Source: Reclinomonas americana ATCC 50394 (lineage: Eukaryota). Taken from it: a stretch of DNA of 64,000 bases. Both the position numbers and the translations under genes were made by a program. The stretch lies in contig PS015034.1 of NCBI GenBank assembly GCA_048213135.1, forward strand, positions 74,054 to 138,053, read 5' to 3'. The notes under the pieces are model-generated. The model was not told the DNA's origin. It saw only the letters and a program-made list of their open reading frames with translations, and ran no database searches. This document shows positions 15,786-63,207 of this stretch, one piece after another (position 1 is the stretch's first letter; the number at the start of each line of letters is the position of its first letter).

Positions 15786-18700
15786 TTACTGTGTGCGATG
15801 GTGAGTTACGAGTGCTTGCGAATCGTGACGCGACGACAACGCACGCAAACCTTCTTGTGCACACTGTCGTAAACGTGGACGAGAATGTCGCCGTATGAGC
15901 CGATTCCGCACACGTTGTCCTCGACGAGCCGCGTCAAGAAACGCGACGCGAAGTCGTGTGTTCGCCACAACACGCGCACCGGGAAGAAGCCCGAGTGTGC
16001 GGCGCGCAACTGGTACACAATCTTGCGTACTCTTCTCGAGTAATCGGAATCCACGTCAGGCAGCTCACCCTGCACGCAAAGAGTGAGCTCACGATTTTCC
16101 TCACACTTCCCCACACAGCAACGCACCACAGCCACAGCGTCACGGAATCGATCGTCGGCTTGATCCACTGGATCGCACCCAAACAGCTCGTACCGTGTCT
16201 CCAACGGCGTGGTGTCGCCAATCCACACAACAATTTGACCCCACAAATCCACATTGTCGAGAATGTACACGGAACTCGTCCGAATAAACGATGAGTTGAG
16301 TGGCACGTCGGGAGGCATGATAATGTCGTCCGGATGTGTAGACAGGCCGTGGTCAACGGCCGGTTCACCCCACTGCGAAGAGGGAAGAGCGAGATGTGTG
16401 AGTGACGTCGTATCAATAACGGTGGGAGAAGAAAAATAACCAACCATCAGATTGGCTGGCTCGGCCAGCATCAGGCGTGGGTACAGCATGCGCCACAACT
16501 TGGCGGGCGATGCATTCTCCAACGCCAAGTAGAACGCCAATGACCGATCCAGTGGACACCGATTCGGCCAGTGGAACACCGGGCTCTTCAACAACGCCAT
16601 GACTGCACGGCACAGGGTCAGTTGCCGACAATAAGATGTGAGCACACAAGTGCCGCGAAAAAGACGCAACTGAAGAGCGGCAAAGTCTTGAGCTTCTCCG
16701 GCAGGATCAGCTTGCCGACAGCAGACTCGCCACCACATTCACTGCGCAGCGCGATGAGTGGCGAATCGACTATGCATGAAGGAGGAGATAAATACTCAAC
16801 TTCTTGTACGCCGTCAGCATCGTGGTCATCGAGTCCATCACCTGCGTGGCCGCCGCCTGCTTGCCCTCCTCGGGCAAGACGCGCAGAGCTGTACATAATA
16901 GTTATGGATCAGCAACAGACGGGACGCAGAGAATTGAATGAATACATGTGTACCTTTCATGCTCCACACTCCAAGCACCGCCGCCAGATCCGAGTGCTCG
17001 TACAGAGCCGAGATGGATGTTGACGACACCACCGTGGCGGTGTGTGAGCGCAGTTTCCGCACACCACACTCATCCGTGTACCTGTGACCACATGTCAGCG
17101 ACCGATACTAAAAGAGACAGACGATTTGCGCGGTCACGCAACAAGACAGCAAACTGCAGGCAACACTTGGCACCGGCCGGGATGGGGTCGTCGTGCTGGA
17201 AGGTAAACGTAATGGTGCTGTCCTGGTCCATGCCCGCCAAGTAGAACTCCCGATGACCACGCTCCGTCATGTTGACGAATCGGGTAATGTTGGTGCGAGG
17301 CATGTACACTTCCTCGATGCACAATCCTGCGTGCATGCGTGGTCAGTCACGTACATCGACAACACACACACACGCCACCGCCGGCACGAGGCGCTCTCAC
17401 CAGTTGAACACCGAAGCTTGAAAATGCAGTCGCGGTACTTGGGCATCTGCAGGTGCGTCGACAACTGCGAGACCAACTGGCTGTAGTCCGACGGTCCGAG
17501 TCCCGAGTAGAGGAACAGCTTGCCGCCCGTCATGCGCGGCAGCGTGGCAATCGTGACAATGTCCGAGTACTCGTGGCCGACCATAAACAGATCGCAGCAC
17601 ACGCCGTAGTTGGCCATGTCACGGCCGAGGTGCGCAAAGAAGTCATTCTTCAGCATGTCCGGCACCAACAACTTGTGTTCCTTCTTGATGTCACCCAGCA
17701 CGCCGGCCGTCGAGCGAGGACCAGCCGTCATGCCAGCGCCGACCGCGTGGTGGTTTGGTGTGTTGGCAAACACGTACATGCGGCCGCCACAGCTGTCGCA
17801 TAGACTCTGCACGACATGAAAAAAGTGAGCAACAAGGTCACACAGCACAACAAAGGAGAGAATGGCACACACGCACCAGCATTTGTGTGGCCGCCAACAT
17901 GGCCGCGCCGACACACCCACGCGACGAGCTGGCCGACGAATCGGCGGCCGACTGGTGCACCTCGGGCGGAGCGAAAATCGGCGAGTTCGGGTTCGTCAGC
18001 AGCGCGCGCAGAGCAGTCTCGTTGCGATACACCGGGCCACCGCGCACACGCGCCTGCGGCGAGAGTGGGGTGTCGGTGTCGTCGCTTCCGAGTCGGAACA
18101 TGCCACCATCCTCAATCGGCACAAAGACGTCGTGCGGGTTGCTGACCGTCAGCTCCTTGATGCGTCCCGTCCTCTGCGCGACGACGACGACGACGACGAG
18201 GCAAAGTGAGTGGCTTTGCTCTCTCTCTCATTATTTTCTTGCCTCATGCGTCCCACTCACCGTGACACTGTAAAAGTGCAACTGCGAGTCGAACACGACC
18301 AGAGCCACACGTGCGCGACGAGCAATCAGCGCGTCGAGGTTCTCGAGAATCGAGTCGGCCACGGCACGGACCAGCAGGCCGCGCTGCACGACAAACACGT
18401 GGGCCATGGGGGTGGCGGCCTTGAGGTTCGGGTGCGGACCGAGATCAAACGACGCCGAGGCGCCGACACCCGAGGGCGTCGAAGCCAGCGAGCTGGGCGA
18501 GCCCAGGGTGGGGTTCGACGGACTCGCCGGTGATCCCAGACGACCGACACGGCCGGCGGCTGGTGTCGACGGTGCCGTCGGGGACTTGATGGTGAGGTCG
18601 TCGAGGACCGACGGGTCGGTCTCCGGGCCAAAGAGCGGCTGGTTCGAGTACAGTCCGGGCGGGGCGTCAATGCCGGAAATCTGGGAGAAGGCAAAAGGAG

Positions 18701-21700
18701 AAGGGTGAGAGGGGGCAAAGGGGGAAGGAGGAAGGGGGAAGAGGGAGGGGGAGAAGGGGAAGGGAAGGGGGAGAAGGTGGAAGGGGGAGGGGCGAAAGGG
18801 GTGAAGGGGGAAGGGGGAGAAGGGGAAGGGAAGGTGAGAAGGGGGAGGAGAGGACAGAGGGGAAGAGAGGGGAAGAGAGGGGAAGAGAGGGGGTAGAGAG
18901 GGAACACACACGGACATGCAAATGCACACAGACAGAGAAGGAGAGATGGAAGACATACACACAGAGGGAAAGGAAGAGAAGACAGACAGAGAGAGAGAGA
19001 GAGAGAGAGAGAATGTGAGTGCGCGCGACGCAACAAATGCAGCACTCTGGCGGCGAGACATTTGGTCCGAGCCCTGACCGGCATCGATAGACAGCTTCTT
19101 GTTGAGCGCCGCGACAAGCGTCTGATCGATCTTCTCCGTCGTGTACTGTGCGTGGATGCAAGTGAATGAGTTGTTGGGGAAAGATATGTGCCTGCGGGTG
19201 TGCGCGCACGGTAACAAACCTCGGAGCTGGCCAGCAACGGCTTGGGGAGTGGCATGTAGTACTCGGGCGCCATGCGGAAGTCGACGCTACCGGCGGCGAG
19301 TTCCACACGCTGGAAACGATCGGTGCGGTTGCTGTCACCGTCCAGCGTGCTGTAGTACGTGCCGTCCACGTCGTTGATGCACGAGCAAATGTTGCAGACG
19401 AACTTCCAGCCGTTCTCGCGCCACCGCGTGCCCGAGTTCACGTAGGTGCCACAGCGACGGCAGCGGCACTTGGTGATCTCGCCGTCGACCTCGCCCGCAA
19501 AACTCTTGGATTCGCCGACGCCGTCCTGGGTGAGAGGAGAGTGAGAGGTGAGAAGGTGGAGAAGGGGAAAGAGTTGAGTGAAGAGGGCGCTGACAAACCT
19601 CGCCAGGTACGGGGACCGCAAAGGGAGTCACAATGGCTCCCATTGGCAAGCCAGTGGCCGTCAATTCACGGCGCGTGTTCGGGATGCAGTACATGGACAG
19701 GCGCATGTAACGCGACGACGCATTGCCTTCGTCATACGTCACGTACTTGCTAAACATGGGCGGTGGTACCAATTGCGACAGAGTGCGATGGACCTGCAGA
19801 GAAAAGGAATGAGCAAGGAAGAGGGAGGAGGAGGAAAGAGATGAGATGTCTGTGGGGTACGTACCTCGACCTTCTGGCCGCGCAAAAAGTTGCCAGGGAC
19901 ATGAGTCGGCAAGCTGCGCGGGTCGACGCGGGATGTGCCCGACTGGCCACTTGTCTGTGACTGCGCGCGGGTGGAGGAGAAGGGGGTATAATTAGCGACC
20001 AGGGATGAAGGGCAAGGAGTGAAGGAGAAGACAACGCGCAGTGAAAGGGGGCGATGGAGTGAAACTTAATCGCTTACTCCGCGCACATGAGACGAGAACA
20101 TTCACGCAACGTTAAGCGACTCCTCCTGCGGCGGCAACATCGGCACATCGTCCGGCATCGAAGTCGGTGGCGCACCCTACAAAAAAAAACGCAAAGATCA
20201 GCCAACGCGTGTCGCACAAAAGAACGAAAGTGAAGGGAGAAGAGATAAGCCAACACGTTTCGTGCGAAGAGACGAAGTGAAGGAGGAAAACAAGTGAGCG
20301 AGGAAGGGAGACGATCTTTGTAATGGAAAAGACAAGCCACTTACGCCAATACGTGTCGCGCAGAGAATGGGGGTGAGAGAGACAGGGAGAGTGCGAGGAA
20401 CAGCGAGAAACTGAGAACGAAGAGGCGTTTAAGAAGCTGGGAGACAAACGGAATTGGGTGGAGCCCGAGGTAGAATTGAGAAGACAAGTCGCATGCGCCA
20501 ACACGTGTCGCACGAAGGAAGCAGGCGAAAGAGAGAGACACGGAAGAGTGAGGAGAGAAGAGGAAGAGAGACAAGCGAGCGAGAAAGGAATAAAGTGACT
20601 TCGAAGAAAAGTGGAGCCCGAGGCAGAATGGAAAAGACAGGTCATACGCCAANNNNNNNNNNNNNNNNNNNNCACGTGTCGCGCAAAGAATGTGAACACG
20701 AGTGAGATAGGGAGAGGCAGGAGGCGAGACAGAGAGAGAGGGGGAGAGAGAGAGAGAGTTTGGAAAGAGAAAAATGGAGCCCGAGGCAGAATTGAGAAGA
20801 CAAGTCGCATACGCCAACACGTGTCGCGCAAAGGAAGCAGGCGAAAGAGAGAGACACGGAAGAGTGAGGAGTGAGGAGGAAGGGAAACAAAAGANNNNNN
20901 NNNNNNNNNNNNNNNNNNNNNNNNNNNNNNNNNNNNNGCAAGAAAACGAGAAAGGAAGAGGTGATTGAGAAGAAAAGCGAAAAAGTGGAGCCCGAGGCAG
21001 AATTGAGAAGACAAGTCAAATCAACCAACACGTGTCGTGTAGAGAGGCAAGACAAGCAAGAATGGCGAGAGGAGAGAGAGAGGCTGTGAGGAAGCAAAGG
21101 CAACGACAAGAGCATGGCATCAAAACCCCACCAAAACCCCACCTGATACGCCGGCGAATACGTGCCGCCCGACGACGGTCCAATCGCGCTCGCGCCATAC
21201 GCCGGCGACATGACGCCCGAGTAGGCCGCATACGGCGAACCCGGCTGCTCAGCCGACGGATGCTGCTGATGAAACGGCGACACGGCCTGCGGAAGCGCAC
21301 CTTGCACGGCCGCCGCCTGCGCCGCATAATACGAATCTGGCGTGGACGGCGCACGCACAGCAGCAGAAGGCGACATGGGTGGCGTCGATGGAGTGGCAAT
21401 GGGTGAGCCGAATGAGCCGGCAAAGGAGGCGATCTGCGCGTGAGAAAAGGAGCCCACGAGCCCGCCCACTGCCGCTGGCTCCATTGTTGCTGCTGCTGGT
21501 GAAGGCGCATCACTGCTTGTGTAATAGTAGCCTGCGCTGGGTGGTGGTGGCGGCAGTGAAGGAGCGGCACGTGACGAGGCAGTGGAGGATGGCAGCGATG
21601 GCGAGCGCCCAAAGCCCGCCACTGCGCTGTCCAGTCCGTTGGCTGGTGCTTGCTGCTGGTGGTGTTGATGCTGTGCAGCTGCTGCAAAGGGCGAGCTTGG

Positions 21701-21847
21701 CAGCACAGCGCCTGCGGGGGCAAAGGGCAGCGATGGCATCACTGCACCGACCATGCCCACACGCTGTTGTTGTTGCAGTTGTTGAGAGGCTTGAGGCGAG
21801 GCATAGGGGTCTGCCTGTGTGAAGAACAGCCCGGAAGGCGGGTTCAT
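15786..21847 (-). CDS. SEC24: COPII coat subunit Sec24
   Basis: Pro/Gln/Ser-rich N-terminus; DEGNASSRYMRLSMYCIP motif; zinc finger CRRCGTYVN...CNIC; trunk, beta-sandwich (LRCSTG) and gelsolin-like C-terminus (RFLTRLVED...SYGDILVHVY). Stop is at 15786 if the last intron is spliced, otherwise 15806. Confidence 0.93.
20190..21050. repeat. Intronic repeat array in Sec24 intron 1
   Basis: Core TGGAGCCCGAGGCAGAATTGAGAAGACAAGTCGCATACGCCAACACGTGTCGC at ~20460, ~20612, ~20775 and ~20987, with partial copies at ~20200, ~20250 and ~20325. Confidence 0.85.
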
Positions 21848-22000
21848 TGTGAGCGCGGCGAGACAACTTCACAAAAAAGATCGTTTTTTTTTGTTGCGTG
21901 CCGGAAAACGAATTTGCGGTAGGGACAGACGCGGACAATGAGTCATGTGGCATAGTGCCGTTACAAGTGCGTGCGTTTGTGTGTGTGTGAGAGAGAGACC

Positions 22001-27630: not shown

Positions 27631-27702
27631 GCCTGCGTAGCATAGTGGTATTGCGTCGCACTCGTAATGCGAAGGTCGGGTGTTCAATTCACCCCGCAGG
27701 CA
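27631..27702 (+). tRNA. tRNA-Thr(CGT)
   Basis: Acceptor stem GCCTGCG/CGCAGGC; anticodon stem TCGCA/TGCGA with loop CTCGTAA; T arm GGGTG-TTCAATT-CACCC; TTTT terminator a few nt downstream. Confidence 0.95.
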
Positions 27703-27996: not shown

Positions 27997-30900
27997 TCAT
28001 ATCTTCAACCCCGACGTGCAGTCCCCACTCGTCGCACACGCCGTTGCCGTCGACGTGGCCACCACGACGCTCTTCGGCACACACTGCTTTGTTGACGCAG
28101 TGAATGTCCACGAGCCGCATGCGGATAATTGGGAGCACCACAACGAGCATGCTTGTGGTCCGGTTGTGGTGGTGATGGCCCACGTGAGATCGCCACCAGG
28201 TCGATCTGAATGCCAACAACCACCAACTCATCAGCACAACTCTCATCACTGCAACAACATTCCAGCTACTCACCCGTTCTAGTCTGGAAGCCGCTGCTGT
28301 CATATGCCGCCGCACTCGTCTTGCGTCCCGATACCAAGCAGAAATGCGAGCCACACACGTTGCTGGTCTCTGCATTGGCTGCGGTTGCTGGCACGTTACT
28401 CTGCATGAAATAAGAAGGTGAGCTCGCCATTTCCTCACGGACTCCCTTCTTCGATCTCCGATTACGTACCCTCAGCGTGCACACACTCACGCCAAGTGTG
28501 TTTGAGGCCGCAGCAGCATCCAGAAATGTCCACGATCGACATTGTGTGGAATCGTCGCACGCCTCGCAGCATGCCACCTCGCTTCGAACAGAGACGATGG
28601 TGGCCAAGATGGTGCCGCCGGGTCGATCCACAGCCTCGAACTGACACACTTCCAGCGCGGCTGCTCGGTATGGCGAAGAGTGAGACGACAGATGACGATG
28701 GTACACCTGAGCTGACAAGGCAACGCAACGGGCCACGACGCCGTTCTGCGGCACTGTTGAACAACCCGCATTTGATGCTGTATTCACGCACGGCAATCAT
28801 TGTCAGCAAATGCCCATTTATCTTTAACTTTTTGCACAGAGAGAGAGAGAGAGAGAGAGAGATCAGCAAGTAAAAACAAGGTGACCTTCCGTTGCCCTCG
28901 CAAGAGCCACTTCGACACAGAGACAGAGAGAGAATACTGAACAGAATACAGAGTCTCCCTTTGTTGCAACTAGATGCACACCCGCACGCAGAATTCGTAT
29001 TCTTGTGTCTCCTCACCATTGCTGTCTTGCCTTCACCATAACACTTCCGATCTCCGCTCTTCTCTCTATTCTAATACTTCGCCCAGTACCCTTTCCTCCA
29101 AATTCCCCCCTTACCATCTCCTCCCCCTTTCCCCTTTCCCTCTCTTCCTCCTTTCCTTCTTTTCCCTCTCTTCTCCCCTTTCCTTCTCTTCCCCTTTTTA
29201 TCTCTTCCTCCTTCCCTTCTCTTCCCTGTTTCCATCCCTTCCTCCTTTCCCTCTCTTCCCCCTCTTCCCCCTTCCCCTGTCTACCCTCCCTTCCCTTCCT
29301 CATTACACACCATACACAATCATGAACTGCTTGGTGTACGTCAGCGCGCCATCGCTCACTTGCACAAACACTTGCAGTCGCCGACTCAGCGGCGGAGCCA
29401 CCGACAGCGTCAGCTGATTGCCACCAACCAGACTGAACATAGCCGCATGCACGCCACCCACAATGCTAAACGTCGCCGTCTGTCCCGTGTTGAGATCCAC
29501 CATGCTCAGTGTGCCCACCGTGAATGGCACCGTCGCACTCGAGTATGTCTGCGAGCCCGATAGCAGAATGTCGCTCGGTGCCACACTCCCTGCACATTCA
29601 CACAGACACAGTTCAGCTCTCTTTTCTCGGTCTCCACTCTCTCTCTCTCCTCTCCCTCTTCACTTTATCTCCCTCTCCCTCTTCACTTTATCTCCCTCTT
29701 CCTCTCAATCTCTCCATCTCCGCTCTCCATCTCCCCTATCTCTCAGCATCCTCTCTCTCCCCTACCTTCTCCCTTCTCCCTCTTCCCCCCGCCCTCACCC
29801 TCTCCTCTCCCTCCGCCCTCTCTCTATCTCTCTTTCTCTCTCTCTCTCTCTGTTCCTCCCCCTTTCCCTTTCCCTTCCCTCTCCCTCTCCTTTTCCCTCC
29901 CCCTCTCCTTTCCCCTCCCCCTCTCCCTGCCACCCCTTTCACTCACCAATCGCAAAGGCCGACAAAGCAACATACGCGCTAGTTGATGCCCATCGCGTGC
30001 ACAGCTCGTACGTGCCACCAGTCGCACCCGCCGCGCCAATCGTCAGTGTGATGCTGTTCGAATTGGTGAATGCACTGCTAATGCTAGTGCTGGCGACGGC
30101 CGTCGGCGGTGTCGTCGCGCCGCATCGGGGGGTCGCGAGCACGTAGGCTGATGCATCCGCCGAGTTGTTCAGCAGCCCGTATCCCGCCACCGTCACCAGC
30201 TGGCCCGCCAGTGGCGACACGAAGGTGGCCGACAGTGATGTCACGGTGAGCACTGCATTGTGGGCAAAGGCAATCAGCATCATCAGGTGCCGCCACATTC
30301 ATGCACATACCCTCTCAATCATCACTCACCGGCCGTCACACTGAACGTCTTGTCGACAAACATGGGCGGTGTGCCGTTGTCAAACGAGCGAATCGAGACA
30401 ACCAGCGGACTCCCCACCTGTCCCGCAGATGGCATCTGCAGCTGTGCGCCGCCACCACTCAGAGAGAACACATTGCTGTTCGCTCCGCCAGTGATAATGT
30501 ATGTGTACGACTGGCCTCCGTCACTGTCGCTCGTGCTCATCGTGCACACAGGCATGTTGGCCGTCGACGGCGCAACATAGGTGGTGGTCGAGCACACAAT
30601 ATCGGTCGGCGTCGAGTTGGAAGTGGTGAAGGACGTGGTAGAGCCGGTGAGAGTGCTGGGCACGGTGGAGGTGGAGAGGGCACGGAAGTAGTACGTCCAG
30701 TTGGCGGCGAGCGATGTCAGTGACGCAGTCAGGGCGGTGCTGGAGGCAACGCCGGAGGTGGCCGGTGTGGCCGAGACGATGACGGAGCCGATGGTGAGTC
30801 GGCGGATGGTATAGCCATTGATTTCTGAGATGACGAACTCTGAGGAAACAGCACAGCATCGCTGTTGCACAAGACACTCGCACCTGCAATACACAATGTC

Positions 30901-33900
30901 GACGACGCGGCATCATATGCCATGAAAATCTGCATACAATGTACACAATTAGCTCACGTGTACAGCCGCATATGCACGCAATGGACGGAGCTAACCGGAC
31001 TGTTCAACCGAGCAGTGGTGAGCGGGCTTCCATCCGCCGATCCAACAACTCCCGCTGCACCTGCTATGGTTGTCACAGCACCGGTGCTTACAACGATTTG
31101 CCGAATTATGTGACTACCCCTCTTCTCGGATCGCGTTGGATAAGAACACGCGAAATAAAGGAACTATGCACGAAACGCAACATCGGAGACGTAAAAAACG
31201 CCTCGACCTCGATCTAGCTGGATGCCGATAGGCGTGTTGAACAGAGCGGCAGTGCCTGTACCATCTGTCGAGCCTGCAGCGCCGGTAAGCGAACCGGCCA
31301 GAGTCGACACAGTCATCGCCAGCATGTCAATTGCACGAATGTTGTGGCGCAGTCGGTCAGCTGCTCATTTCACGGGTGTGAGAGCGTATCACTTACGTCG
31401 GTGACCAATATGACGCGGAGATTAGTGTACACACCGACATAGAGTCGATTGGCCGTCGCGTCCACAACCAAGCCAGTCGGCCCATCAAACCGGGCTGTTG
31501 TTGCGCACGCTCCATCAACCATTCCCGACGACCCCATCGTACCGCAGTAGGTGGTGACTTCGCCGCCGTATGTGACCTACGAGAGGCAATCTAAGTTGCG
31601 CACTACACAAGGAACAATCGACGCAAGTGCGTGTACGCACCTTCCTGACCGCAGAGTTGCTCAAGTCACCTACGTACATCACTTTGTTGGCCGCATCCAC
31701 CACGATACCGTGCGGTTGGTTAAACCGCGCACTCGAACCCATGCCATCCGCAGCGCCTGCCGACCCATTACCAGCCAGCGTTGACAAAAACCCGGAAGGA
31801 GTACTCACGCGGATTGTGTAGTTCCACAACTACACAGTCTGAAGTTGAGAAACGAAGCAGTACTCGCTGAACGAGACTAACGCAACATCAGCAATGTACA
31901 TGTATCCGGTCGTCGAGTCAATTGACAGATCGGTGGGCTTGTTGAACTGAGCAGCAGTGCCGATTCCGTCGACCAGGCCCCACATTCCCGCCGTTCCCAG
32001 AAACGTCGACACCACACCTCCACTCGTCACTCGTCGAACTGTGTGGTTTTGCTGATCACACACAAATGCCGTGCCCGATGCGTCGATCGCAATACTCTGC
32101 CAGTCACCTCAATAGTGAGAAAAACCAGCTCGTGACAAGTGGGATGAGAACTCACAATCGGTCTGTTAAAACGAGCAGCAGTCCCCGTGCCATCTGTTGT
32201 TCCAGCCATGCCTGCTGAACCCAACCACGTTGACATCGCTGGCGTGATACCGAACGCAGCCGCAGTGGGCGCCCATTCAAACGAGTTGCTCATTGTCGAG
32301 GCCGCCACAGAGTTGCCCACCATAGCATTCAATGTCGCCGACGATGCTGTCACACTGTTGGCCGCAAGCGTGGCCAACGATTGGGTTGCTGTGATGCATC
32401 AACAAGGAAGAGAAGCACAGTGAATGACCAGCAATGTAAACAGGTGAATGAAGCGGAGAATGCAAAGAAGGAAGATGAGGAAGAAGAAGAACGAGAGGGA
32501 GGAGGAGGGGGAGGAGGAGGGGGAGTGAAAGCAGAGAACGGCAGACATCGCCTCACCTGTGGTGATGGTGAATGCCTTGTCGAAGAACAGCGGCGGCGAT
32601 CCATTGTCCGTCGACCGTATTGTCACCGCAAGCGAGCTGCCCACCTGCCCCGCCGCCACAATCACCAGCGACTGCCCGCTGATCGAAAACACCGCACTAT
32701 TGGCGCCACCGACAATCGAGTACGTGAACGACTGGCCTGCATTCGCGTCCGTCGTCTGCAGCGCACACACGACTTGATTCGCCACCGACGGCGACACATA
32801 CGTCGTCGACGAGCAGCTAATGTCGGTCGGAGCCACATTGGTGGTGGTGGTGACTGACACGGTCGCGCCGCTGATCGTGCTAGGCGTGGAGGTGACACCG
32901 ACAGCCCGCAAATAGTACGTCCAGTTGCTCACCAATCCAGTCAACGAGGCGGTGATCGAGGTGGCAACAGAGCCAGTAGCGGTGGCAGGTGTGGCCGACA
33001 CCAACTGGGATGACAGCGAGAGGCGACGGATAATGTGCGTGGTGTAATCGGCAACCAGCATAGATGCAGTCGATGCATCGAAGGCGACGTGGACAGGCGA
33101 GTTGAAGCGTGCCACGGTCAGAGCGCTGCCGTTGGCTGAGCCACTCACACCCGCCGCGCCGCCAATTGTCGACACTGACGAGTCTGACACACGAAGTTGC
33201 CGCACGGTGTTGTTGGTAGACTGAGACACTCAAGCAGTCAGAATCGAATGCAGAGGGTGTGGAGTATGGGACACGCTCAACATCGGCAACATAGATGACG
33301 TTGTTTCCTGCGTCGTATCCCAGTCCAACAGGTGTATTGAACCGAGCAGCCGTTCCTGGTGCGCATCGATAAGCACGAAAGCAATCGATCACACTGAGTT
33401 GCACACGATGATAAACTCACCGGTGGCATCCGTGGATCCAGATGCGCCGCTCGTCGAACCCGCCACCGTCGTCACCGTCATCCCCACAGTGTCAATGGCT
33501 CGGATGGAGTTGTTCACGCGGTCGACTGCACTCACGCATAACCAAGCAGAAGGCGCAGATGAGAATGAGAAATGCGCTGTGACTCTCCTCGTTCTCAGCT
33601 CACCAACATACAGCGTGGATCCGACGAGCAGCACGCCATTAGGACCACCGAATCGCGCCGCTCCCGCACACGCACCATCGGCAGTACCACTCATGCCCGC
33701 CGTGCCGCAAAAGGTCGTCACCGCACCAGCATAGGTCACTCGCCGAATGGCGTTGTTGAGCCAGTCGCCCACAAACACCACTTGGTTCGTGGCATCCACC
33801 GCCACACCCATCGGCTGATTGAAAGAGGCGGCCGCACCCGAGGCATTGGCACTCCCCGATGCCCCATTGCCTGCCAGCGTGGTGACCACGGCCGCCGGTG

Positions 33901-34090
33901 TGACGGCGCGAACGGCGTGGTTCGTCAACTATGGGAGAGAGACGCACAGAGTTAGCAGAATGCATCAAGCAGTGTGATCATGTATGCCTCTACATACTCA
34001 CATCGGCGACATACATCGTTCCCGTGGTTTGGTCGATGGCGAGGCCGGCAACACTGTGAGCGTGCTGGATGAGTGAAGGAGAGAGAGAGA

Positions 34091-34145
<55 letters not shown>

Positions 34146-35043
34146 GAGTACGGTACGTACGTTACGTTTACGTACGTCGTCGTCGTCCGTCCTACCGTCC
34201 GTCGTCCGTACCGTACCGTCCCGGACCGGGACCGGGACCCGGTACCGGTACCGGGTTCGGTCCGGTACCGGANNNNNNNNNNNNNNNNNNNNGAGAGAGA
34301 GAGAGAGAGCACATGGACGCACTTTTTGAACTGCGCTGCCACTCCTGTGCCATCCGCGAGGCCGCACGTGGTGCCAGCAAAGGTTGTCACCGTTGCTGCA
34401 GGCGTGATGCGCCGAATGCGACAGTTGCTGTCATTGCACGTGCAGGAGTGAGAGAGGAGAGACGAATCAACAATCGACAGACAACGACGAGGGAAGAGTG
34501 CATGCATTACAAACCCGTAATCGCCGACATACACGTTGCCGCCAGCGTCAAAGACCAGTCCCTGTCGAGGTATCTGTTAGTACATCACACAGGACATGCA
34601 GAAGGGGCAGCTGCGGCCACACCATTGGATTTGTGAATCGCGCACTGGCCCCAACGCCATTGGTGGTTCCCGATGAGCTCGCCGTGCCCGCAAAAGTGGA
34701 GACAGTGGCAGAGGAGGCACCAATGGCCGGTGCATAGGGTGACCACTCGAACGAGTTGGTGGTGCCGCCGGCGATGTTATTGGGATTGACCCACGCATTG
34801 AGAGTGGCCGTCGAGCCAGTGATGTTGTTGGCGACAGCGGTGGTCACTGTCTGCGCGTCTACGTGGAGAGCAACAGGTGACACGTGAGTGGGCGTGTCCT
34901 CGCTGCGCTCGCTCACAAGCAACGCGCGAAGCGCAACTTGCAGCGACGGCGAGCAAGTGAACGAGCAAGAGGACGACAGCAGTCGCGCAAAAGTACCCTC
35001 GAGTGACAGTGAGTCGAACAGTGCGAGAGGTAGGAGAAATCAT
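27997..35043 (-). CDS. Large secreted multidomain protein, copy 1: signal peptide, 2x [FN3-like domain with NHL propeller + cadherin-like domain], IPT/Ig-like, cadherin-like, 2x PAN/apple
   Basis: Hydrophobic N-terminus (AVVLLLVHLLAVAA); NHL repeats (AARFNxPxG...YVAD..N..IR); cadherin-like APTDI...D...FTYSIVGG...F.I.G...IRSTD.G; PAN motifs DRPGG...CC..C...C.SWTF. A phase-1 intron at 28778-29310 joins the PAN exons. Confidence 0.85.
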
Positions 35044-35127: not shown

Positions 35128-38100
35128 TCAAATTTTCAACCCCGACGTGCAGTCACCGCTCGTCGCACACGCAGTCATGGTCGACGTTGCCACCACGCCG
35201 CTCTTCGGCACGCACTGCTTGGTCGACGCCGTAAATGTCCACGAGCCGCAGGCGGTCAGTTGAGAGCACCACAGTGAGCATGCTTGTGGTCCGGTTGTCG
35301 TGGTGATGGCCCACGTGAGATCGCCACCAGGTCGATCTGAATGCCAACAACCACCAACTCATCAGCACAACTCTCATCACTGCAACAACATTCCAGCTAC
35401 TCACCCGTTCTAGTCTGGAAGCCGCTGCTGTCATATGCCGCCGCACTCGTCTTGCGTCCCGATACCAAGCAGAAATGCGAGCCACACACGTTGCTGGTCT
35501 CTGCATTGGCTGCGGTTGCTGGCACGTTACTCTGTATGAAATAAGAAGGTGAGCTCGTCATTCCCCTCACGGACTCCCCTCTTCGATCACGTGCCTTCAG
35601 CGTGCACACACTCACGCCAAGTGTGTTTGACGCCGCAGCAGCATCCAGAAATGTCCACGATCGACATTGTGTGGAATCGTCGCACGCCTCGCAGCATGCC
35701 ACCTCGCTTCGAACAGAGACGATGGTGGCCAAGATGGTGCCGCCGGGTCGATCCACAGCCTCGAACTGACACACTTCCAGCGCGGCTGCTCGGTATGGCG
35801 AAGAGTGAGACGACAGATGACGATGGTACACCTGAGCTGACAAGGCAACGCAACGGGCCACGACGCCGTTCTGCGGCACTGTTGAACAGCCCGTATTCGA
35901 TGCTGTATTCACGCACGGCAATCATTGTCAGCAAATGCGCATTTATCTTCAACTTTTTTTGCACAGAGAGAGAGAGAGAGAGATCAGCAAGCAACAACAA
36001 GGTAACCTTCCGTTGCCCGCACGAGCCACTTCGACACAGAGACAGAGAGAGAATACTGAACAGAATACAGAGTCTCCCTTTGTCGCAACTAGATGCACAC
36101 CCGCACGCAGAATTCGTATACTTGTGTCTCTTCACCATTGCTGTCTTGCCTTCACCATAACACTTCCGATCTCCGCTCTTCTCTCTATTCTAATACTTCG
36201 CCCAGTACCCTTTCCTCCAAATTCCCCCCTTACCATCTCCTCCCCCTTTCCCCTTTCCCTCTCTTCCTCCTTTCCTTCTTTTCCCTCTCTTCTCCCCTTT
36301 CCTTCTCTTCCCCTTTTTATCTCTTCCTCCTTTCCCTCTCTTCCCCCTCTTCCCCCTTCCCCTGTCTACCCTCCCTTCCCTTCCTCATTACACACCATAC
36401 ACAATCATGAACTGCTTGGTGTACGTCAGCGCGCCATCGCTCACTTGCACAAACACTTGCAGTCGCCGACTCAGTGGCGGAGCCACCGATATCGTCAGCT
36501 GATTACCGCCCACGAGGCTGAATAGAGCCGCATGCACACCGCCCACAATGCTGAATGTCGGCGTCTGTCCCGTGTTGAGATCCACCATGCTCAGTGTACC
36601 CACCGTGAATGGCACCGTCGCACTCGAGTATGTCTGCGAGCCCGATAGCAGAATGTCGCTCGGTGCCACACTCCCTGCACATACACAGTTCAGCTCTCTT
36701 TTCTCGGTCTCCTCTCTCTCTCTCCTCTCTTCCTCTTCATCCCCCTCTCTCCTCTCCTCTCAATCTCTCCATCTCCGCTCTCCATCTCCCCTATCTATCT
36801 GCATCCTCTCTCTCCCCATCTACCTTCTCCCTTCTCCCTCTTCCCCCCGCCCTCACCCTCTCCTCTCCCTCCGCCCTCTCTCTATCTCTCTTTCTCTCTC
36901 TCTCTCTGTTTCTCCCCCTTTCCCTTTCCCTTCCTTCTCCCTCTCCTTTTCCCTCCCCCTCTCCCTGCCACCCCTTTCACTCACCAATCGCAAAGGCCGA
37001 CAAAGCAACATACGCGCTAGTTGATGCCCATCGCGTGCACAGCTCGTATGTGCCACCAGTCGCACCCGCCGCGCCAATCGTCAGTGTGATGCTGTTCGAA
37101 TTGGTGAATGCACTGCTAATGCTAGTGCTGGCGACGGCTGTCGGCGGTGTCGTCGCGCCGCATCGGGGGGTCGCGAGCACGTAGGCTGATGCGTCCGCTG
37201 AGTTGTTCAGCAGCCCGTATCCCGCCACCGTCACCAGCTGGCCCGCCAGTGGCGACACGAAGGTGGCCGACAGTGATGTCACGGTGAGCACTGCATTGCG
37301 GGCAAAGGCAATCAGCATCATCAGGTGCCGCCACATTCATGCACATACCCTCTCAATCATCACTCACCAGCCGTCACACTGAACGTCTTGTCGACAAACA
37401 TGGGCGGTGTGCCGCTGTCAAACGAGCGAATCGAGACAACCAGCGGACTCCCCACCTGTCCCGCAGATGGCATCTGCAGCTGTGCGCCGCCACCACTCAG
37501 AGAGAACACATTGCTGTTCGCTCCGCCAGTGATAATGTATGTGTACGACTGGCCTCCGTCACTGTCGCTCGTGCTCATCGTGCACACAGGCATGTTGGCC
37601 GTCGACGGCGCAACATAGGTGGTGGTCGAGCACACAATGTCGGTCGGCGTCGAGTTGGAAGTGGTGAAGGACGTGGTGGAGCCGGTGAGAGTGCTGGGCA
37701 CGGTGGAGGTGGAGATGGCACGGAAGTAGTATGTCGAGTTGGCGGCGAGCGATGTCAGTGACGCAGTCAGGGTGGTGCTGGAGGCAACGCCAGAGGTGGC
37801 CGGTGTGGCCGAGACGATGACGGAGCCAATGGTGAGTCGGCGGATGGTAAGATTGTTAGTATCTGAGATGACGCACGCTGAGAAAGCAGCACAGCATGAC
37901 TATCACAAAAACCGGTTGGGGACACGCGTACCTGCAATATACAATGTCGACGATGCGGCATCATATGCCAAGAAATGCTGCATACAGATACAATGTACAC
38001 AAATGAGCTCAAGTGTTCCACGAACGGCCCTACGCACGCAATGCACGGAGCTTACCGAACTGTTCAACCGCGCAGCTGTGAGCGGGCTCCCGTCCGCTGA

Positions 38101-41100
38101 CCCAGCAACTCCTGCTGCACCAGCTATAGTTGTCACAGCACCGGTGCTTACAACGATTTGCCGAATTATGTGACTACCCCTCTTCTCGGATCGCGTTGGA
38201 TAAGAACACGCGAAATAAAGGAACTATGCACGAAACGCAACATCGGAGACGTAAAAAACGCCTCGACCTCGATCTAGCTGGATGCCGATAGGCGTGTTGA
38301 ACAGAGCGGCAGTGCCTGTAGCATCTGTCGAGCCTGCAACTCCAGTAAGCGAACCGGCCAGAGTCGACACAGTCATTGCCAGCATGTCGATTGCACGAAT
38401 GTTGTTACGATCTCGATCAGCTGCGCATCTCCAGAGTGTGAGAGCTGGTCACGATCTGTCTAATAGACGCGGAGATTAGCGTACACACCAACGTACAGTC
38501 GATTGGCCGTCGCGTCCACAACCAAGCCCGCCGGTCCCCCAAACCGTGCTGTTGGTGTGCACGCACCGTCAACGTATGCGTACGACCCCATCGTACCGCA
38601 GTAGGTGGTGACTTCGCCGCCGTATGTGACCTACGAGAGGCAATCTAAGTTGCGCACTACACAAGGAACAATCGACGCAAGTGCGTGCACTCACCTTCCT
38701 GACCGCAGAGTTGCTCCAATCACCAACGTACATCACTTTGTTGGCCGCATCAACAATGATGCCGTGCGGCTGGTTAAACCGCGCACTCGAACCCATGCCA
38801 TCCGCAGCGCCTGCCGAACCATTGCCAGCCAGCGTTGACAAATAACCGGAAGGGGTACTCACGCGGATTGCGTGGTTCCACAACTACAAAGTGTGAATGT
38901 TGAGAGACAAAGCAGCATTCACAGAAGAAACGCAACCAGACCAACGCAACATCAGCAATGTACAAGTATCCGGTCGTCGAGTCCATTGACAGATCGGTGG
39001 GCTTGTTGAACTGAGTAGCAGTGCCGATTCCGTCGACCAGGCCCCACATTCCCGCCGTTCCCAGAAACGTCGACACCACACCTCCACTCGTCACTCGTCG
39101 AACTGTGTGATTGGATTGATCACACACAAACGCAGTACCCGATGTGTCGATTGCAATACCCTGCCAGTCGCCTCAATAATGAGAAATACGTAGCTTGGGG
39201 CAGAGTGGGACGAAAACTTACCATGGGTCTGTTAAAACGAGCAGCAGTCCCCGTGCCATCTGTTGTTCCAACCATGCCCGCCGAGCCCAACCACGTTGAC
39301 ATCGCTGGCGTGATACCGAGAGCAGCTGTCGACGGTGCCCATTCAAACGAGTTGCTCATCGTCGAGGCCGCCACAGAGTTGCCCACCACAGCATTCAACG
39401 TCGCCGACGATGCTGTCACACTGCTGGCCGCAAGCGTGGCCAACGATTGGGTTGCTGTGATGCATCAACAAGGAAGAGAAGCACAGTGAATGACCAGCAA
39501 TGTAAACAGGTGAATGAAGCGGAGAATGCAAAGAAGGAAGATGAGGAAGAAGAAGAACGAGAGGGAGAGGTTAGGGAGGAGGAGGAGGAGGAGGAGGAGG
39601 GGAGAGTGACAATGCAGCACCCCATTCATCTCACCCGCAGTGATGGTGAACGCCTTGTCGAAGAACAGCGGCGGCGATCCATTATCCGTCGACCGTATAG
39701 TCACCGCCAGCGAGCTGCCCGCCTGCCCCGCCGCCACAATCACCAGCGACTGCCCGCTGATCGAAAACACTCCACTATTCGCGCCACCGACAATCGAGTA
39801 CGTGAACGATTGCCCCGCATTCGCGTCCGTCGTCTGGAGCGCACACACGACTTGATTCGCCACCGACGGCGACACATACGTCGTCGACGAGCAGCTAATG
39901 TCGGTTGGAGCCACATTGGTGATGGTGGTGAAGGACACAGTGGCGCCATTGATGGTGCTGGGCGTGGAGGTGACACCGACAGCTCGCAAATAGTACGTCC
40001 AGCTGCTCACCAATCCAGTCAATGAGGCGGTGATGGACGAGGCGAGGGAGCCAGTGGAGGTGGCAGGTGTGGCCGACACCGTCTGCGACGCCAGCGAGAG
40101 GCGACGGATAATGTGCGTGTTGTAATCAGCAACCAGCATAGATGCTGTCGATGAATCGAAGGCGACGTGGACAGGCGAGTTGAAGCGTGCCACGGTCAGA
40201 GCGCTGCCGTTGGCTGATCCACTCATGCCGGCCGCACCACCAATCGTGGACACTGACGAGTCCGACACTCGAAGTTGCCGCACGGTATTGTTGGTGGACT
40301 GAGACACTCATGCAGTCAGAATTGAACGCAGAGGGTGAGGAGTATGGGACACGCTCAACATCGGCAACATAGATGACGTTGTTTCCAGCGTCGTATGCCA
40401 GTCCCACAGGTGTGTTGAAGCGAGCAGCCGTTCCTGCTGAATCGGTCAGAACGCAGGCAGACAATCACACTGAGCTGCCCATCACGGTGGACTCACCGGT
40501 GGCATCCGTGGATCCAGATGTGCCGCTCGTTGAACCCGCCACCGTCGACACCGTCATCCCCACCGTGTCAATCGCTCGGATGGAGTTGTTCACGCGGTCA
40601 CCTGCACTCACACAAACAGCGAAAGGCGGATGAGGACGGGAGGAATGCATCATCTCTGCGTCCCCACACAGCACTCGCCAACATACAGCGTGGATCCAAC
40701 AAGCAGCACGCCATTGGGACCACCGAATCGCGCCGCTCCCGCACACGCACCATCGGCAGTGCCACTCATGCCCGCCGTGCCGCAAAAGGTCGTCGCCGCA
40801 CCAGCGTAGGTCACTCGCCGAATGGCGTTGTTGAGCCAGTCGCCCACAAACACCACTTGGTTCGTGGCATCCACCGCCACACCCATCGGCTGATTGAAGG
40901 AGGCGGCCGCACCCGAGGCATTGGCACTCCCCGACGCCCCGTTTCCCGCCAGTGTAGTGACCACGGCCGCCGGTGTGACGGCACGCACAGCGTGGTTCAT
41001 CAACTGTGGGAGAGAGACGCACAGAGTCAGCAGAATGCATCGAGATGTGTGATGCATACCTCTACATACTCACATCGGCAACATAGATGGTTCCCGTGGT

Positions 41101-41150
41101 TTGGTCGATGGCGAGTCCGGCGACACTGTAAGCGTGCTGGATGAGTGAAG

Positions 41151-41199
<49 letters not shown>

Positions 41200-41213: not shown

Positions 41214-41451
41214 NNNNNNNNNNNNNNNNNNNNNNNNNNNNNNNNNNNNNNNNNNNNNNNNNNNNNNNNNNNNNNNNNNNNNNNNNNNNNNNNNNNNNNN
41301 NNNNNNNNNNNNNNNNNNNNNNNNNNNNNNNNNNNNNNNNNNNNNNNNNNNNNNNNNNNNNNNNNNNNNNNNNNNNNNNNNNNNNNNNNNNNNNNNNNNN
41401 NNNNNNNNNNNNNCGTGGCCTCTCTCTCTCTGTCACACACACGCGTTCTCA

Positions 41452-41803: not shown

Positions 41804-42316
41804 GGATTGTGATTTTTTTCGGTGGGCGCGTGTGTTCTCGGCTCACTCGAGCAACAAAATGGTTTGTACTTTTTTGTCTCACCTTGGTTGTTCCGGGGTG
41901 GCGGAGAATCCACCGCGCTGTATCTCTCTGTCAGTGCGTGTGGTGGTCGATGGGCAGTCACTCGCTGCGTGCGATCGATATCATGATCGATATCGCGCGC
42001 GATCGTCGACGTCGTCTCTTTCGCCATGGCCAGTGATCGCCCCGTACGCAAGCGGCTGCGGAATAATGCACGGGTATCTCGCACTGTATCGTGCTGGAAT
42101 CCCGTGCGCAATGCCTCGCGATTATAACAACGCGCTGCGATCGATATCGCGACGTTGGCGACGTTCACGATTATAACATCGCGACAATCGTCTTCTCTTC
42201 GCCTCACCATTCGCACACCCCTCACACACACATACTTTCACAGCACGGATCACACTGGGACACCCGCAGCAATCAGCACAGGACGACAATCATCATCCGT
42301 CCCTCCTCTCCACATC

Positions 42317-45300
42317 ATGGTGAAGGCGTACCTGCGCTACGTGTCCACGGGCGCCCCGCTGGGCCTGGTCAGTGTGAGCCCGGCTGCGGCTGTCAGCACC
42401 AATGGCGGCTGTGCAGTGCTCACTCCGCCATCGACAATCACTGCGGCCACCGCCACCCGGCCTCGCCAGTTGAACAATGCACTGGCGTCGGCAGCTGTCG
42501 TGTGCACTCCGGCACTGGAGAACGTGCAGCTGTGGCACCAGCGACAAGCGGCGTTGGTGTGTGGCTGTTTTTGCGCCATGTGCACATTCACATGCACACA
42601 CGCGAGCGACCACTCTCTCACTCTTTCTTCTTCTCTCTGTCTGTCTGTGCAGTCGGCGCTGTTGGTGCAGAGCACCAGTGATCTGGCCGATGATTCACAC
42701 CCACAAGTCACTTGTGTGCTGGCATCGTCGTGTGGCACAATGGTCATTGCCGGCTATGTCGACGGATCAATCCGTGTCTTCCGTGTGCCGCCGCAGGCGT
42801 TTCGTGTGCCAGCGGGAGACAGAGAGGTCTGTCTGCCCACTCTCTGCCTCTCTGCAAGCCACCTACCCGCTCACTCTTTCATTCGACGCAGCCGCTGACC
42901 ATCACTCCCGAGCTGGTGTTGGAGGGTCACTCGGCCTCGGTGACGTGCCTGGTGCTGGATAATGGCGACTCGGGCCGTCCTGCCACCTTGCTCCTGTCGG
43001 GCTCCAACGACACCAACGGTATTCTGTGGGATCTGGTGTCGGGTCAGGCCGTGTCGACGCTACGCGGACATCGCGATCAGTTGTCGTGCGCATCGTTTGT
43101 GATGCCGAGTGGAGCCACTGTGGGCGGAGGTGTTGGTCGCGTACAGCGGGCAGTCACAGGGTCGCGCGATGGTCTTGTCAAGATCTGGGAGCTCGACACG
43201 GGAGCGTGTGTGGAGACCATTGTCGGCATCCGCTCGCCGATTCTGGCCGTGTGCGTGTGTCCGCGTGCAGAGCGGCTGCTGGTGGGTGCGTCGGACTCGC
43301 ATCTGCGCATGTATGAATTGGAGACGATGCGGTACATGGGCGGCATGCCGCGTGCCGGCAATCGAGAGCGTGTGGCGTTTGTGAGGTGGTTGACGGCCGC
43401 CAGTGGTCGTGAGTATGTGGTGCTCCACGGCGCCGACAAGGTGCTGGAGTTGTTGACGGTGCTGTCGGCGGAGCGCACTGAGAAGCGAGTTGCCAAGCGA
43501 CGGAGGAAGATCATGCAGAAGAGCAAGAAGCAGCGCAAGGATGCGGCGCAGGGCAAGGATGAGGAGGAGGAGGACGAAGATGGCGACGAGCCGATGGCGG
43601 AGGAGGCGGCTACTGAGGTGCGTCAACTATTCGCAGTGTGTAAGTAAGTGAGAGGACAGGAGAGTGAACGGGATGAACACAAGAAGGAGTAGAGGAGGAA
43701 GAAGAGAGGGCGGAGTGACAAAGAGGGAGTGTGTGTCCAGGCAGAGTGCCAACGCGCGGTGACATGCACAGGTCGGAATCGCGGATGTGCTGGAGGAGCC
43801 TCTGGTGCTGCTGCGGCCGGATGCCAAATTCACTGGCGTGTCTGTGTTGCCGATTGCGCGCAATGCGTCGCACCTGCCGGGTCAGGCGGTCAACGAAGAC
43901 GTGTTTTCGGTGCGCTTCTCTTCCGCCCCCACTGAGGAATTTTTGTGCTTGCGCTGAGAATGGGGGGCATGTGCAGGTGGTGACCACACTCGGCAGCAAC
44001 ACTCTGCAATCCTACGACGTTGTGGTTGCACAGGCGAGCTCCAAGGATCACGCCGCCGACGGTGGCCGGCGCAGTATTGATCCGTCAAAGACGGTGGCGC
44101 GTCCAGCCGGCCTCAACATTCCACACTGGGGTCACGGAAGCGATGTGCGTGCCGTAGTAATCTCCCACGACGACGCACTCGCGGCGTCGGTGTCGAGCGA
44201 CAGTGTCAAGGTGTGGACACTGGCGCACCGGAGACTACTGCGCTCGCTGCCGTCGGGTTATGGCCTGTCGGTGGCGTTCTTGCCTGGCAATCGGCACCTG
44301 GTGGTGGGCACCAAGACTGGCCACCTCGAGTTGTTCGACTTGTCGGCCGCCTGCCTGTTGGAGAGAATACAGGCGCACGATGGTGAGTGCCGTCGGCGAC
44401 GGAAAAAAGACGCGAGTCGTGTCAATCGGTGCTGATGTGTTTGTAGGTGCCGTGTGGAGTGTGATTGTGCATCCGGATGGGCGCGGTCTGGTGACGGGCA
44501 GTGCCGACAAGACGGTGAAGTTCTGGACGGTGGAGAGCATCACGGGCATGGTGGCTGCTCGACCGGTCGCCGATGCCGACGCCAGTGACGATGCTCCGGC
44601 GCAGGTGTGTGTGTTGGCAGGGTCGCGATATTTTCCGTGTCCACTCTCTTGGCCTCTCACCATTTTCGTGTGCTGTTGGGTAGGTTTCTGGCCAGAGGCT
44701 CTCGTTGCGCGAAGTCCACGTGCTGAAAATGACCGACGACGTGCTGTGCGTGCGCATGTCGCACGACGGAACCACGCTTGCCGTGTCGCTTCTCGACTGC
44801 AACATCAAGATCTTCTACGCCGACACACTTCGCTTCCGCCTGTCACTGTACGGCCATTCGGTGTGTGTGTCTTGCGTGTGTTGCTTGGCTCTTTTGCATT
44901 GCGCACGACGCGTGTGGCTGATCTCTGTGCGTCCCATTCGCATAGCTGCCTGTGTTGTCCATGGATCTCAGCACGGATGGCACGCTGATCGTCACCGGTA
45001 GTGCCGACAAGACTGTCCGTTTGTGGGGTCTCGACTTTGGCGACTGTCACCGCACGCTGTTGGCACATACGGACTCGGTAATGGCCGTGCAGTTTGTGCC
45101 AAACACGCACTACTTTTTCTCGGTTTGTGTCGTCGCACGGCGTGCGTGTGTGTGTGCCCATTCTCACACAACGAGCAGGCTGGCAAGGATGGTGACGTGT
45201 CGTACTGGGATGCCGATGCGTACGAGCGCATCTCCACACTGCACGGTCACCACGGCGAGGCGTGGTCGATTGCGTTGTCGTCCTCGGGCGACACGGTGGT

Positions 45301-55159: not shown

Positions 55160-55891
55160 CACCCTGTTGAACTTGTCTCTGTGTCGTGGTGCAATTGAAT
55201 CAGAACCAGAATATCGAATAAAATGACCCCCACTCTCTCGCAACAGCAAAACGTGCACGCACGCGAGTGCCTCTCTACGTGCACACGTCACTATCAACAC
55301 CGCATGCCTCCACGGAGATAACACCCCGCGAAATCCGCGGTTTTTTTCTCGCGAAGATGGGGCGTGAGCGCCACATTCAACGGTAAGACTCCCTTCTCAC
55401 AAACAAGAAAAAAAGTGAATCTATGCCCACACACAAACACAGCACTGCGACACTCACTGACGCGCACAGACNNNNNNNNNNNNNNNNNNNNNNNNNNNNN
55501 NNNNNNNNNNNNNNNNNNNNNNNNNNNNNNNNNNNNNNNNNNNNNNNNNNNNNNNNNNNNNNNNNNNNNNNNNNNNNNNNNNNNNNNNNNNNNNNNNNNN
55601 NNNNNNNNNNNNNNNNNNNNNNNNNNNNNNNNNNNNNNNNNNNNNNNNNNNNNNNNNNNNNNNNNNNNNNNNNNNNNNNNNNNNNNNNNNNNNNNNNNNN
55701 NNNNNNNNNNNNNNNNNNNNNNNNNNNNNNNNNNNNNNNNNNNNNNNNNNNNNNNNNNNNNNNNNNNNNNNNNNNNNNNNNNNNNNNNNNNNNNNNNNNN
55801 NNNNNNNNNNNNNNNNNNNNNNNNNGTGCGCAGAGCTTTGTTGACTTGTTGTTTTTCTTCGTTGACTCAACATGTGGGCGAATGACGGCAG

Positions 55892-63073: not shown

Positions 63074-63207
63074 TTTGTTGATTGAGTTTTTCTTTGCTCA
63101 CAAGCAGGTACTTGAAGAAGAATATGGGAAACACCGGGTTTCACATGCCGTCGAGCGGGAGTGCGACGCCGCCGAAGACCACCCTCTTGGGTCGTTCGAA
63201 ATGATCT

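Follow-up and report, generated by a model that had tools for sequence, protein, structure and literature searches.

What might a eukaryotic cell do with NHL beta-propellers lodged inside bacterial-type fibronectin type III (FN3)-like domains? The question is raised by a 64,000-nucleotide stretch of the Reclinomonas americana ATCC 50394 genome (GenBank assembly GCA_048213135.1, contig PS015034.1, positions 74,054 to 138,053 of the forward strand; hereafter the window, whose first letter is position 1). A preliminary description of this DNA had pointed to propellers lying between 30330 and 34860 inside split FN3-like domains, each followed by a cadherin-like domain. We find that the gene in question (copy A) belongs to a family of about 80 paralogues in the same genome, in which the top face of the propellers is hypervariable, while purifying selection acts on the FN3 halves and the stalk. 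The family with its hypervariable propeller face is new here; the nested layout itself already exists in a few bacteria.

Architecture of copy A

Copy A lies on the minus strand (35043-27997), and its 23 exons, joined at GT..AG sites, form a single open frame of 1,504 amino acids (aa). The product begins with a predicted signal peptide, continues with two successive units, each made up of an FN3-like N-half, six NHL blades, an FN3-like C-half and a cadherin-like domain (the second unit spanning aa 580-1118), and ends with an IPT/TIG-like domain, another cadherin-like domain and two PAN/apple domains (Table 1). The four FN3-like halves that the preliminary description had placed at about 34740-34850 and 32840-33010, and again at about 32270-32390 and 30620-30780, are all present, with a full set of six blades inside each pair and a cadherin-like domain after each. 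The terminal PAN/apple domains that it had also named both exceed the Pfam PAN_4 cut-off (27 bits) and show the cysteines expected of the family. Its extent takes in the halves, the propellers and the first two cadherin-like domains, and leaves out the exon for the signal peptide, the TIG domain, cadherin-like domain 3 and a tandem copy of the gene. A domain map of the whole 1,504-aa product contains no membrane anchor; with a leader present and no anchor, the protein is predicted to be secreted.

The cadherin-like domains are homologous to PF00028, matching bacterial cadherin repeats at E 1e-20 to 1e-13 and 31-48% identity. Their closest matches are bacterial, in line with the bacterial-like stalk first proposed. 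Of the calcium motifs, EN and DFE are lost, DxD is partly kept and TD-x-G is kept, with three to five acidic residues per domain, and this partial loss makes a rigid stalk uncertain.

The FN3-like halves as one split domain

A profile derived exclusively from intact bacterial modules (14, from proteins P0056, P0036 and P0047) matches the copy A protein in complementary halves, twice: at aa 46-104 and 429-483, and again at 584-629 and 963-1021. The C-halves match at E 1.3e-9 and 3.4e-10 and the N-halves at 6e-5 and 2e-4, and the halves, once joined by script, match an intact module along its whole length (43% over ~95 aa). The layout is that of a split domain, a sandwich interrupted by a complete inserted domain with its two ends together, and places each propeller in a loop of a bacterial-type module, as had been suggested. 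The relation of this module to FN3 is seen in the titin and PTP-delta FN3 chains that its profile finds (E 3e-26 to 3e-6, summed over repeats), in the FN3 signature L-x-x-x-x-x-Y-x-F-R of strands E-F and in the seven strands modelled for a bacterial homologue. Intact bacterial modules score 17-23 bits against a Pfam fn3 cut-off of 25, and the window's own halves have no Pfam match, so that linear domain annotation misses the split layout. FN3 chains are absent among the fold-search matches listed for the bacterial unit model, where propeller matches filled the lists.

The unit modelled was a natural bacterial one, aa 44-468 of the Logan metagenome protein P0047, a homologue rather than the window's own protein, with about 43.6-46% identity to unit 1 (43.6% over 424 aa). 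AlphaFold2 was given a 66-row alignment comprising nine bacterial split units, four window exons, 42 intact modules and 11 NHL-only sequences. All five models reached a predicted local distance difference test (pLDDT) score of 96, the best having pLDDT 96.5 and a predicted template-modelling (pTM) score of 0.90. Strands A, B and C precede the propeller in the model, and strands C', E, F and G follow it. When the window's own halves were folded as two chains without alignments, they scored 0.43 against 0.02 for the best control, with contacts agreeing at least 95% between runs and a partner pLDDT of at least 72. The mark used there is reached by 51 of 78 solved pairs and 2 of 108 mismatched pairs, passes at or below 0.60 frequently prove wrong, and a pass can be carried by resemblance to FN3 folds already solved; the two-chain result therefore lends weak support to a single domain.

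Three points tell against this interpretation. The modelled unit is a homologue from bacteria that shares 46% identity with unit 1; AlphaFold2 without an alignment folds the propeller of the P0047 unit and not its FN halves (pLDDT <50); and the signal across the halves was supplied by the 42 intact modules, so that the model demonstrates compatibility with one fold rather than giving independent proof. Each FN3-like domain is thus predicted to close round its propeller as a seven-stranded sandwich (A-B-C, propeller, C'-E-F-G), and the earlier expectation that the halves form one beta-sandwich is compatible with both the homologue model and the two-chain result.

Propeller fold and orientation

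Each unit carries six pairs of the motifs F-x-x-P-x-G and D-x-x-N-x-x-I-R in four-stranded blades, as in NHL propellers, and identity to bacterial NHL proteins reaches 51%. Pfam NHL and TEN_NHL matches to single window exons are weak and below cut-off; Pfam NHL is above cut-off in one of the bacterial split units (L164). The folds closest to the modelled propeller are SOQ1, NHLRC2 and TRIM NHL domains (Z 40-44.5), SOQ1 and NHLRC2 superposing on the bacterial homologue model with Z 44 and a root-mean-square deviation of 1.6-1.8 over 303-310 aligned residues. Other six-bladed matches include PAL (Z 30) and lactonases (Z 28-30), and the top Foldseek match is the teneurin-like protein 9IFO.

The modelled propeller starts with strand d and ends with strand c, so that the FN3 domain would stand in for a bottom c-d loop and leave the top face outwards. 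From this topology, the top face would point away from the stalk of cadherin-like, TIG and PAN domains. The top face, defined by the b-c and d-a loops, is described as the ligand-binding surface of NHL domains (PMC4015489), and top-surface loops are likewise given as the ligand-binding side in PMC9634614.

A family of paralogues with a hypervariable top face

The genome assembly comprises 108 Mb in 16,441 contigs. Exon 2 has 83 matches in it at ≥72% identity, exon 9 has 79 at ≥83%, and exon 19 has 79 full-length matches at ≥84%. We fetched 40 of the 77 other exon-9 loci, picked for long contigs, and found a constant exon order across all 40. Splice sites are conserved (AG plus GT/GC flanking exon 6 in 37 of 37 and exon 8 in 41 of 41), and, by a rough heuristic, 26 of 31 paralogues have a hydrophobic upstream exon. 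Pairwise protein identity ranges from 78 to 94.5% (median 82%, 40 rows), which identifies the copies as paralogues rather than alleles. A stop occurs in just two of 41 rows, in both cases at an exon edge. Most paralogues share the C-terminal end of copy A, and most carry one more cadherin-like exon than copy A and its tandem neighbour, copy B. Where that exon lies in most fetched paralogues, in an interval of ~400-430 bases, copies A and B have just a 77-base intron (30329-30253 and 37367-37291); three other loci (L024, L027 and L043) also lack the exon. Three giant genes of the same genome, on contigs C449, C110 and C101 (L213-L215), consist of chains of FN3-split NHL units with no cadherin between them.

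A literature search, judged by titles and the openings of abstracts, returned nothing on this family and no account of an NHL propeller inserted in a fibronectin type III domain or of NHL-repeat expansion in the genome of a heterotrophic flagellate; Graham et al. 2024 (Proteins 92:933), reportedly the paper that defines split domains, may list propeller inserts.

Across the paralogues, entropy peaks at three blade offsets after the F of F-x-x-P (F+1, F+2, F+4) and at the same three after the D of D-x-x-N (D+1, D+2, D+4), reaching 1.4-2.5 bits against 0.4-0.9 bits in the bottom loops. On the bacterial model these offsets map to the d-a and b-c loops. The ratio of nonsynonymous to synonymous polymorphism (pN/pS) is 0.72-0.77 at this top-face loop set and 0.18-0.28 in all other parts. 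The face strings were distinct in all 32 copies compared. Many introns sit in the b-c loops of the blades, adjoining hypervariable codons.

Site models (our own implementation of M1a and M2a, with FastTree trees and one scale factor) prefer M2a over M1a in propeller 2, with twice the log-likelihood difference (2dL) at 364 (36 rows; 6% of sites, omega 3.8). This value falls to 285 with exon-wise trees and to 101 when multi-base changes are allowed. Of the sites with high posterior in propeller 2, 18 of 18 fall within loops of the top face. Propeller 1 gives 2dL 61, with seven of nine such sites in those loops; for FN halves and cadherins 2dL is ~0, and for TIG plus PAN it is 4.9. The residues at the face also depart from neutral expectation: W/F/Y make up 16% (4.5% expected), N/Q 23% (4%) and Pro 0.3% (9%), while D/E account for 2.5% and His is rare.

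Positive selection on the top face is suggested by these comparisons, and several results pull the other way. The loop set was chosen after the entropy profile had been viewed, which inflates its p-value. A fast neutral codon class beats M2a (log-likelihood -18762.9 against -18781.3), and with multi-base changes the two are about equal (-18612.2 and -18610.5). Across seven close pairs, the nonsynonymous divergence (dN) at face codons is 1.2-1.3 times the local synonymous divergence (dS; p 0.07-0.25), and the Asn/Gln excess is partly the ancestral NHL consensus.

Local hypermutation is unsupported as a source of the face variation: in a test that conditions on identical amino acids, synonymous divergence was 0.43-0.46 at or beside variable codons and 0.42-0.46 elsewhere in propeller 2. 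Synonymous divergence in propeller 2 (0.42-0.46) exceeds that of the cadherin and TIG exons (0.26); it looks as if gene conversion homogenised the stalk and spared the variable head.

Bacterial relatives and origin

The preliminary description did not recognise the architecture from known proteins, and in this it has to be corrected, since bacteria possess it and the principle behind it is published (PMC12077191). P0047 holds three FN3-split NHL units beside three intact modules. Its terminal sequences appear planctomycete-like. A junction profile derived from genome G004 found full units in five of 401 Verrucomicrobiota genomes (G004 itself, G082, G226, G347 and G359) and none in 401 Planctomycetota, 401 Bacteroidota, 251 Acidobacteriota and 251 Chloroflexota genomes, with at most 14-23 candidates scored per genome and 30 of 44 Bacteroidota matches read as loci. 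On these samples, the NHL-inserted layout is rare, and the expectation that it would not prove common has held. The bacterial proteins share the module, the split point after strand C and the propeller register with the window family; they differ in that a single such gene was found in each genome, with neither PAN nor a following cadherin in the stretches read.

The same loop of the same FN3-like module holds other domains elsewhere. It carries a LamG/ConA-like domain in four of 401 Bacteroidota genomes (G815, G820, G825 and G835), and in the acidobacterium G1440 (L248:1627-3018) the module is split by a 375-residue insert with an F5/8 type C (discoidin)-like domain and an unknown part. Since NHL, LamG or discoidin inserts occupy one point of the module, this loop appears to be a socket for exchangeable heads. 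A related arrangement was seen in a Verrucomicrobiota metagenome-assembled genome (G002), where six or twelve NHL blades are inserted in Ig I-set-like domains directly after the YQW strand, in eight open frames, two of them duplicates (L083, L088, L140, L141, L144 and L149 among the loci).

Protein database searches for more split proteins were swamped by cadherin-repeat or NHL-only proteins, and a junction-only search returned 29 candidates with no further split protein among them. In the ESM Atlas, NHL clusters appeared at 0.91-0.92 and one fn3-like cluster at 0.89. A 90-row quick tree of joined FN halves (96 columns) placed the eukaryotic halves among intact modules (Shimodaira-Hasegawa-like approximate likelihood ratio test 92, unstarred), and a 43-row tree placed them with bacterial split units (73). 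An approximately unbiased test did not reject a clade of eukaryotic halves with P0047 (p 0.73). These trees do not separate one origin from several. A bacterial source of the parts, whose closest matches are bacterial, is plausible. In two Logan fragments, P0189 and P0166, a cadherin-like domain comes after a C-half, and P0189 includes an NHL tail as well; both fragments give way to intron-like sequence just where the window exons do. Neither has a high-score match in the R. americana genome, and relatives may therefore exist in other eukaryotes.

Proposed function and alternatives

The family of about 80 paralogues is probably a repertoire of secreted surface-binding proteins whose specificity would be set by the variable propeller top faces, so that the adhesion or recognition role originally proposed is retained as our best guess. 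The conserved FN3, cadherin-like, TIG and PAN domains would serve as the carrier, and the two top faces would carry the specificity. The foreign surfaces bound may differ from member to member, glycans or proteins of bacteria, of other cells or of the substrate being the most plausible targets, and the conserved PAN/TIG end might tether the protein to the cell coat or cross-link it. Aromatic residues, Asn and Gln are typical of glycan- and protein-binding sites. It is the face rich in these residues, together with the lectin-type heads in the bacterial socket, that favours a surface-binding repertoire. More tentatively, the roughly 80 two-headed proteins could form an antibody-like germline repertoire on a bacterial display module, their NHL top faces acting as paratopes under diversifying selection for differing surfaces of prey, partners or enemies, and the FN3-like module being a general socket for NHL, LamG and discoidin heads across bacteria.

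The copies might instead be abundant coat or secreted structural proteins whose exposed face varies to escape a virus, predator or parasite, or drifts unconstrained. A fast neutral class fitting as well as positive selection, a dN/dS near 1 in close pairs, many N-glycosylation sequons (14 in copy A) and the missing anchor would all suit such a coat. We nevertheless regard it as unlikely, because the bottom-face loops are conserved though equally exposed in the fold, because the face is aromatic-rich and poor in Pro and acidic residues, unlike the neutral expectation, and because bacterial versions of the scaffold display lectin-type domains. Recognition of self or kin, with the propellers of one cell binding their counterparts on a conspecific cell, draws on the teneurins, whose NHL faces make trans contacts (PMC5851990), and on the rank of teneurin-like 9IFO as top Foldseek match. 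The presence of a TIG domain together with polymorphism is also reminiscent of Dictyostelium TgrB1/TgrC1. It looks improbable for proteins that have no membrane anchor, no FN-plug and no YD shell, and whose diversity is spread over ~80 loci within a single genome, not over the alleles of a locus.

A role as secreted enzymes resembling lyases or lactonases such as PAL or SMP-30, with diversified substrate pockets, would accord with the six-bladed enzymes among the fold matches and with the active site of PAL on its top face (PMC4015489). Yet the top-face positions where catalytic or metal residues would sit vary most of all and seldom hold acidic residues or His, and SOQ1, NHLRC2 and TRIM NHL domains are closer in fold, which makes an enzymatic role highly improbable. 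An assembly artefact or a population of mostly dead duplicates is largely refuted and hardly credible: the assembly is fragmented, with many N gaps, and several tandem copies adjoin gaps, but copies differ by ~18% in protein, stops are confined to two rows, pN/pS is low outside the face and splice sites are conserved.

The molecular basis by which microbial eukaryotes tell foreign surfaces apart is poorly known. The family offers a directly testable candidate for such discrimination, with a fixed scaffold, ~18 variable face positions in one propeller and ~80 natural variants.

Features and neighbourhood

The feature coordinates are collected in Table 1. An in-frame alternative donor would end exon 1 at 34938. 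Intron 4 contains an N gap (34273-34292), and the low-complexity stretch beside it (34140-34272) resembles sequencing or assembly noise. The donors at 33281, 31886, 31181 and 28729 read GTTGCG or GTTGAG and follow the D of a D-x-x-N motif or a non-G base. Copy B lies directly upstream of copy A, and its 5' end falls in an N gap (41214-41413). A 1.25-kb contig (L212; C10511:512-1234) carries exons 1-4 at 91-98% identity to copy A and may be the 5' end that copy B lacks; it showed no overlap with the flanks of the gap.

Table 1. Features of copy A, its tandem paralogue and bacterial loci with split modules
Feature	Position	Strand	Basis or remark
Exon 1, predicted signal peptide	34917..35043	-	hydrophobic stretch AVVLLLVHLLAVAA
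FN3-like N-half, unit 1 (strands A-B-C; aa 44-85)	34731..34856	-	profile of intact bacterial modules; alignments
NHL six-bladed propeller 1 (aa 92-428, exons 2-9)	33008..34712	-	F-x-x-P and D-x-x-N motifs, six pairs
FN3-like C-half, unit 1 (strands C'-E-F-G; aa 429-484)	32840..33007	-	profile match E 1.3e-9
Cadherin-like domain 1	32558..32839	-	bacterial PF00028 repeats match at 42-48% identity; Pfam Cadherin match below cut-off (E 0.03)
FN3-like N-half, unit 2 (aa 580-620)	32264..32386	-	profile match
NHL six-bladed propeller 2 (aa 628-966, exons 10-17)	30787..32242	-	holds the family's most variable sites
FN3-like C-half, unit 2 (aa 967-1022)	30619..30786	-	profile match E 3.4e-10
Cadherin-like domain 2	30331..30618	-	31-36% identity to bacterial cadherin repeats
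IPT/TIG-like domain, exon 18	29948..30250	-	Pfam TIG match below cut-off (E 0.009)
Cadherin-like domain 3, exon 19	29312..29587	-	38-39% identity to domain 1; no Pfam match
PAN/apple domain 1 and linker, exons 20-22	28274..28777	-	PAN_4 E 1.2e-10, 41.7 bits
PAN/apple domain 2 and stop, exon 23	27997..28205	-	PAN_4 E 3.1e-6, 27.6 bits; no transmembrane-like tail
Tandem paralogue B (exons 5-23 as in copy A)	35128..41198	-	90.7% nucleotide identity to copy A
Bacterial FN3-split NHL loci	L152, L161-L164, L179, L184		in G004, G359, G347, G082, G226
LamG-split modules	L225:1483-2418, L243:1492-2445, L239:1792-2733, L242:1810-2751, L222:1810-2760		PF13385, E 1e-23 to 1e-30; in G820, G835, G815, G825

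A tRNA-Thr(CGT) lies at 27631-27702, ~300 bases downstream of the copy A stop codon. Further genes in the window, judged by eye from translations, are ordinary eukaryotic neighbours: a WD40 protein (1505-2671), a Sec24-like gene (15800-21900), a Utp12/Dip2-like WD40 gene (42300-46560), a serine/threonine phosphatase (55400-57300) and histone H2A (62553-63140).

Comparison with known systems

In teneurins and bacterial teneurin-like proteins (9IFO, 6FB3), too, an FN-type domain holds a six-bladed NHL propeller outside the cell and leaves the propeller's top face free for cell contact. The NHL domain of teneurins lies downstream of an FN-plug and is followed by a YD shell (PMC5851990), whereas in the window family it lies inside the FN3-like domain and no YD shell is present. 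Bacterial cadherin-domain surface proteins (PF00028 with PF17803; P0001-P0013) have stalk domains 31-48% identical to those of the window family, which differs from them in lacking the EN and DFE calcium-site motifs and in its small number of such domains, three or four per protein.

Germline-encoded, diversified recognition families with a conserved scaffold and variation on an exposed face include Dictyostelium TgrB1/TgrC1, snail FREPs and sea-urchin SpTransformer. We know of none among these that uses a propeller nested in an FN3 domain. The window family shares with them the scaffold and the variable exposed face, and differs in fold.

In the RTX adhesins AhLap of Aeromonas hydrophila and FrhA of Vibrio cholerae, split domains are reported to project ligand-binding domains (PMC12077191; bioRxiv 10.1101/2025.09.30.679566). 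There, as here, an Ig-like sandwich of an extender stalk is interrupted by an insert that projects off axis and is the likely ligand binder. According to a figure legend of the preprint, the RTX host domain is split after its first strand or before its last two, whereas the module of the window family is split after its third strand, C. The insert in this family is an NHL propeller, whereas the word propeller occurs in neither main text, and NHL does not occur in the preprint. The copy A product has no RTX, type I secretion signal or retention module, its ends being a predicted signal peptide and PAN domains, and its family is eukaryotic, intron-rich and about 80 genes strong. The rule that a split domain marks a ligand-binding head would thereby reach beyond RTX adhesins and apply to an FN3-like module that occurs in several phyla of bacteria and in a eukaryote.

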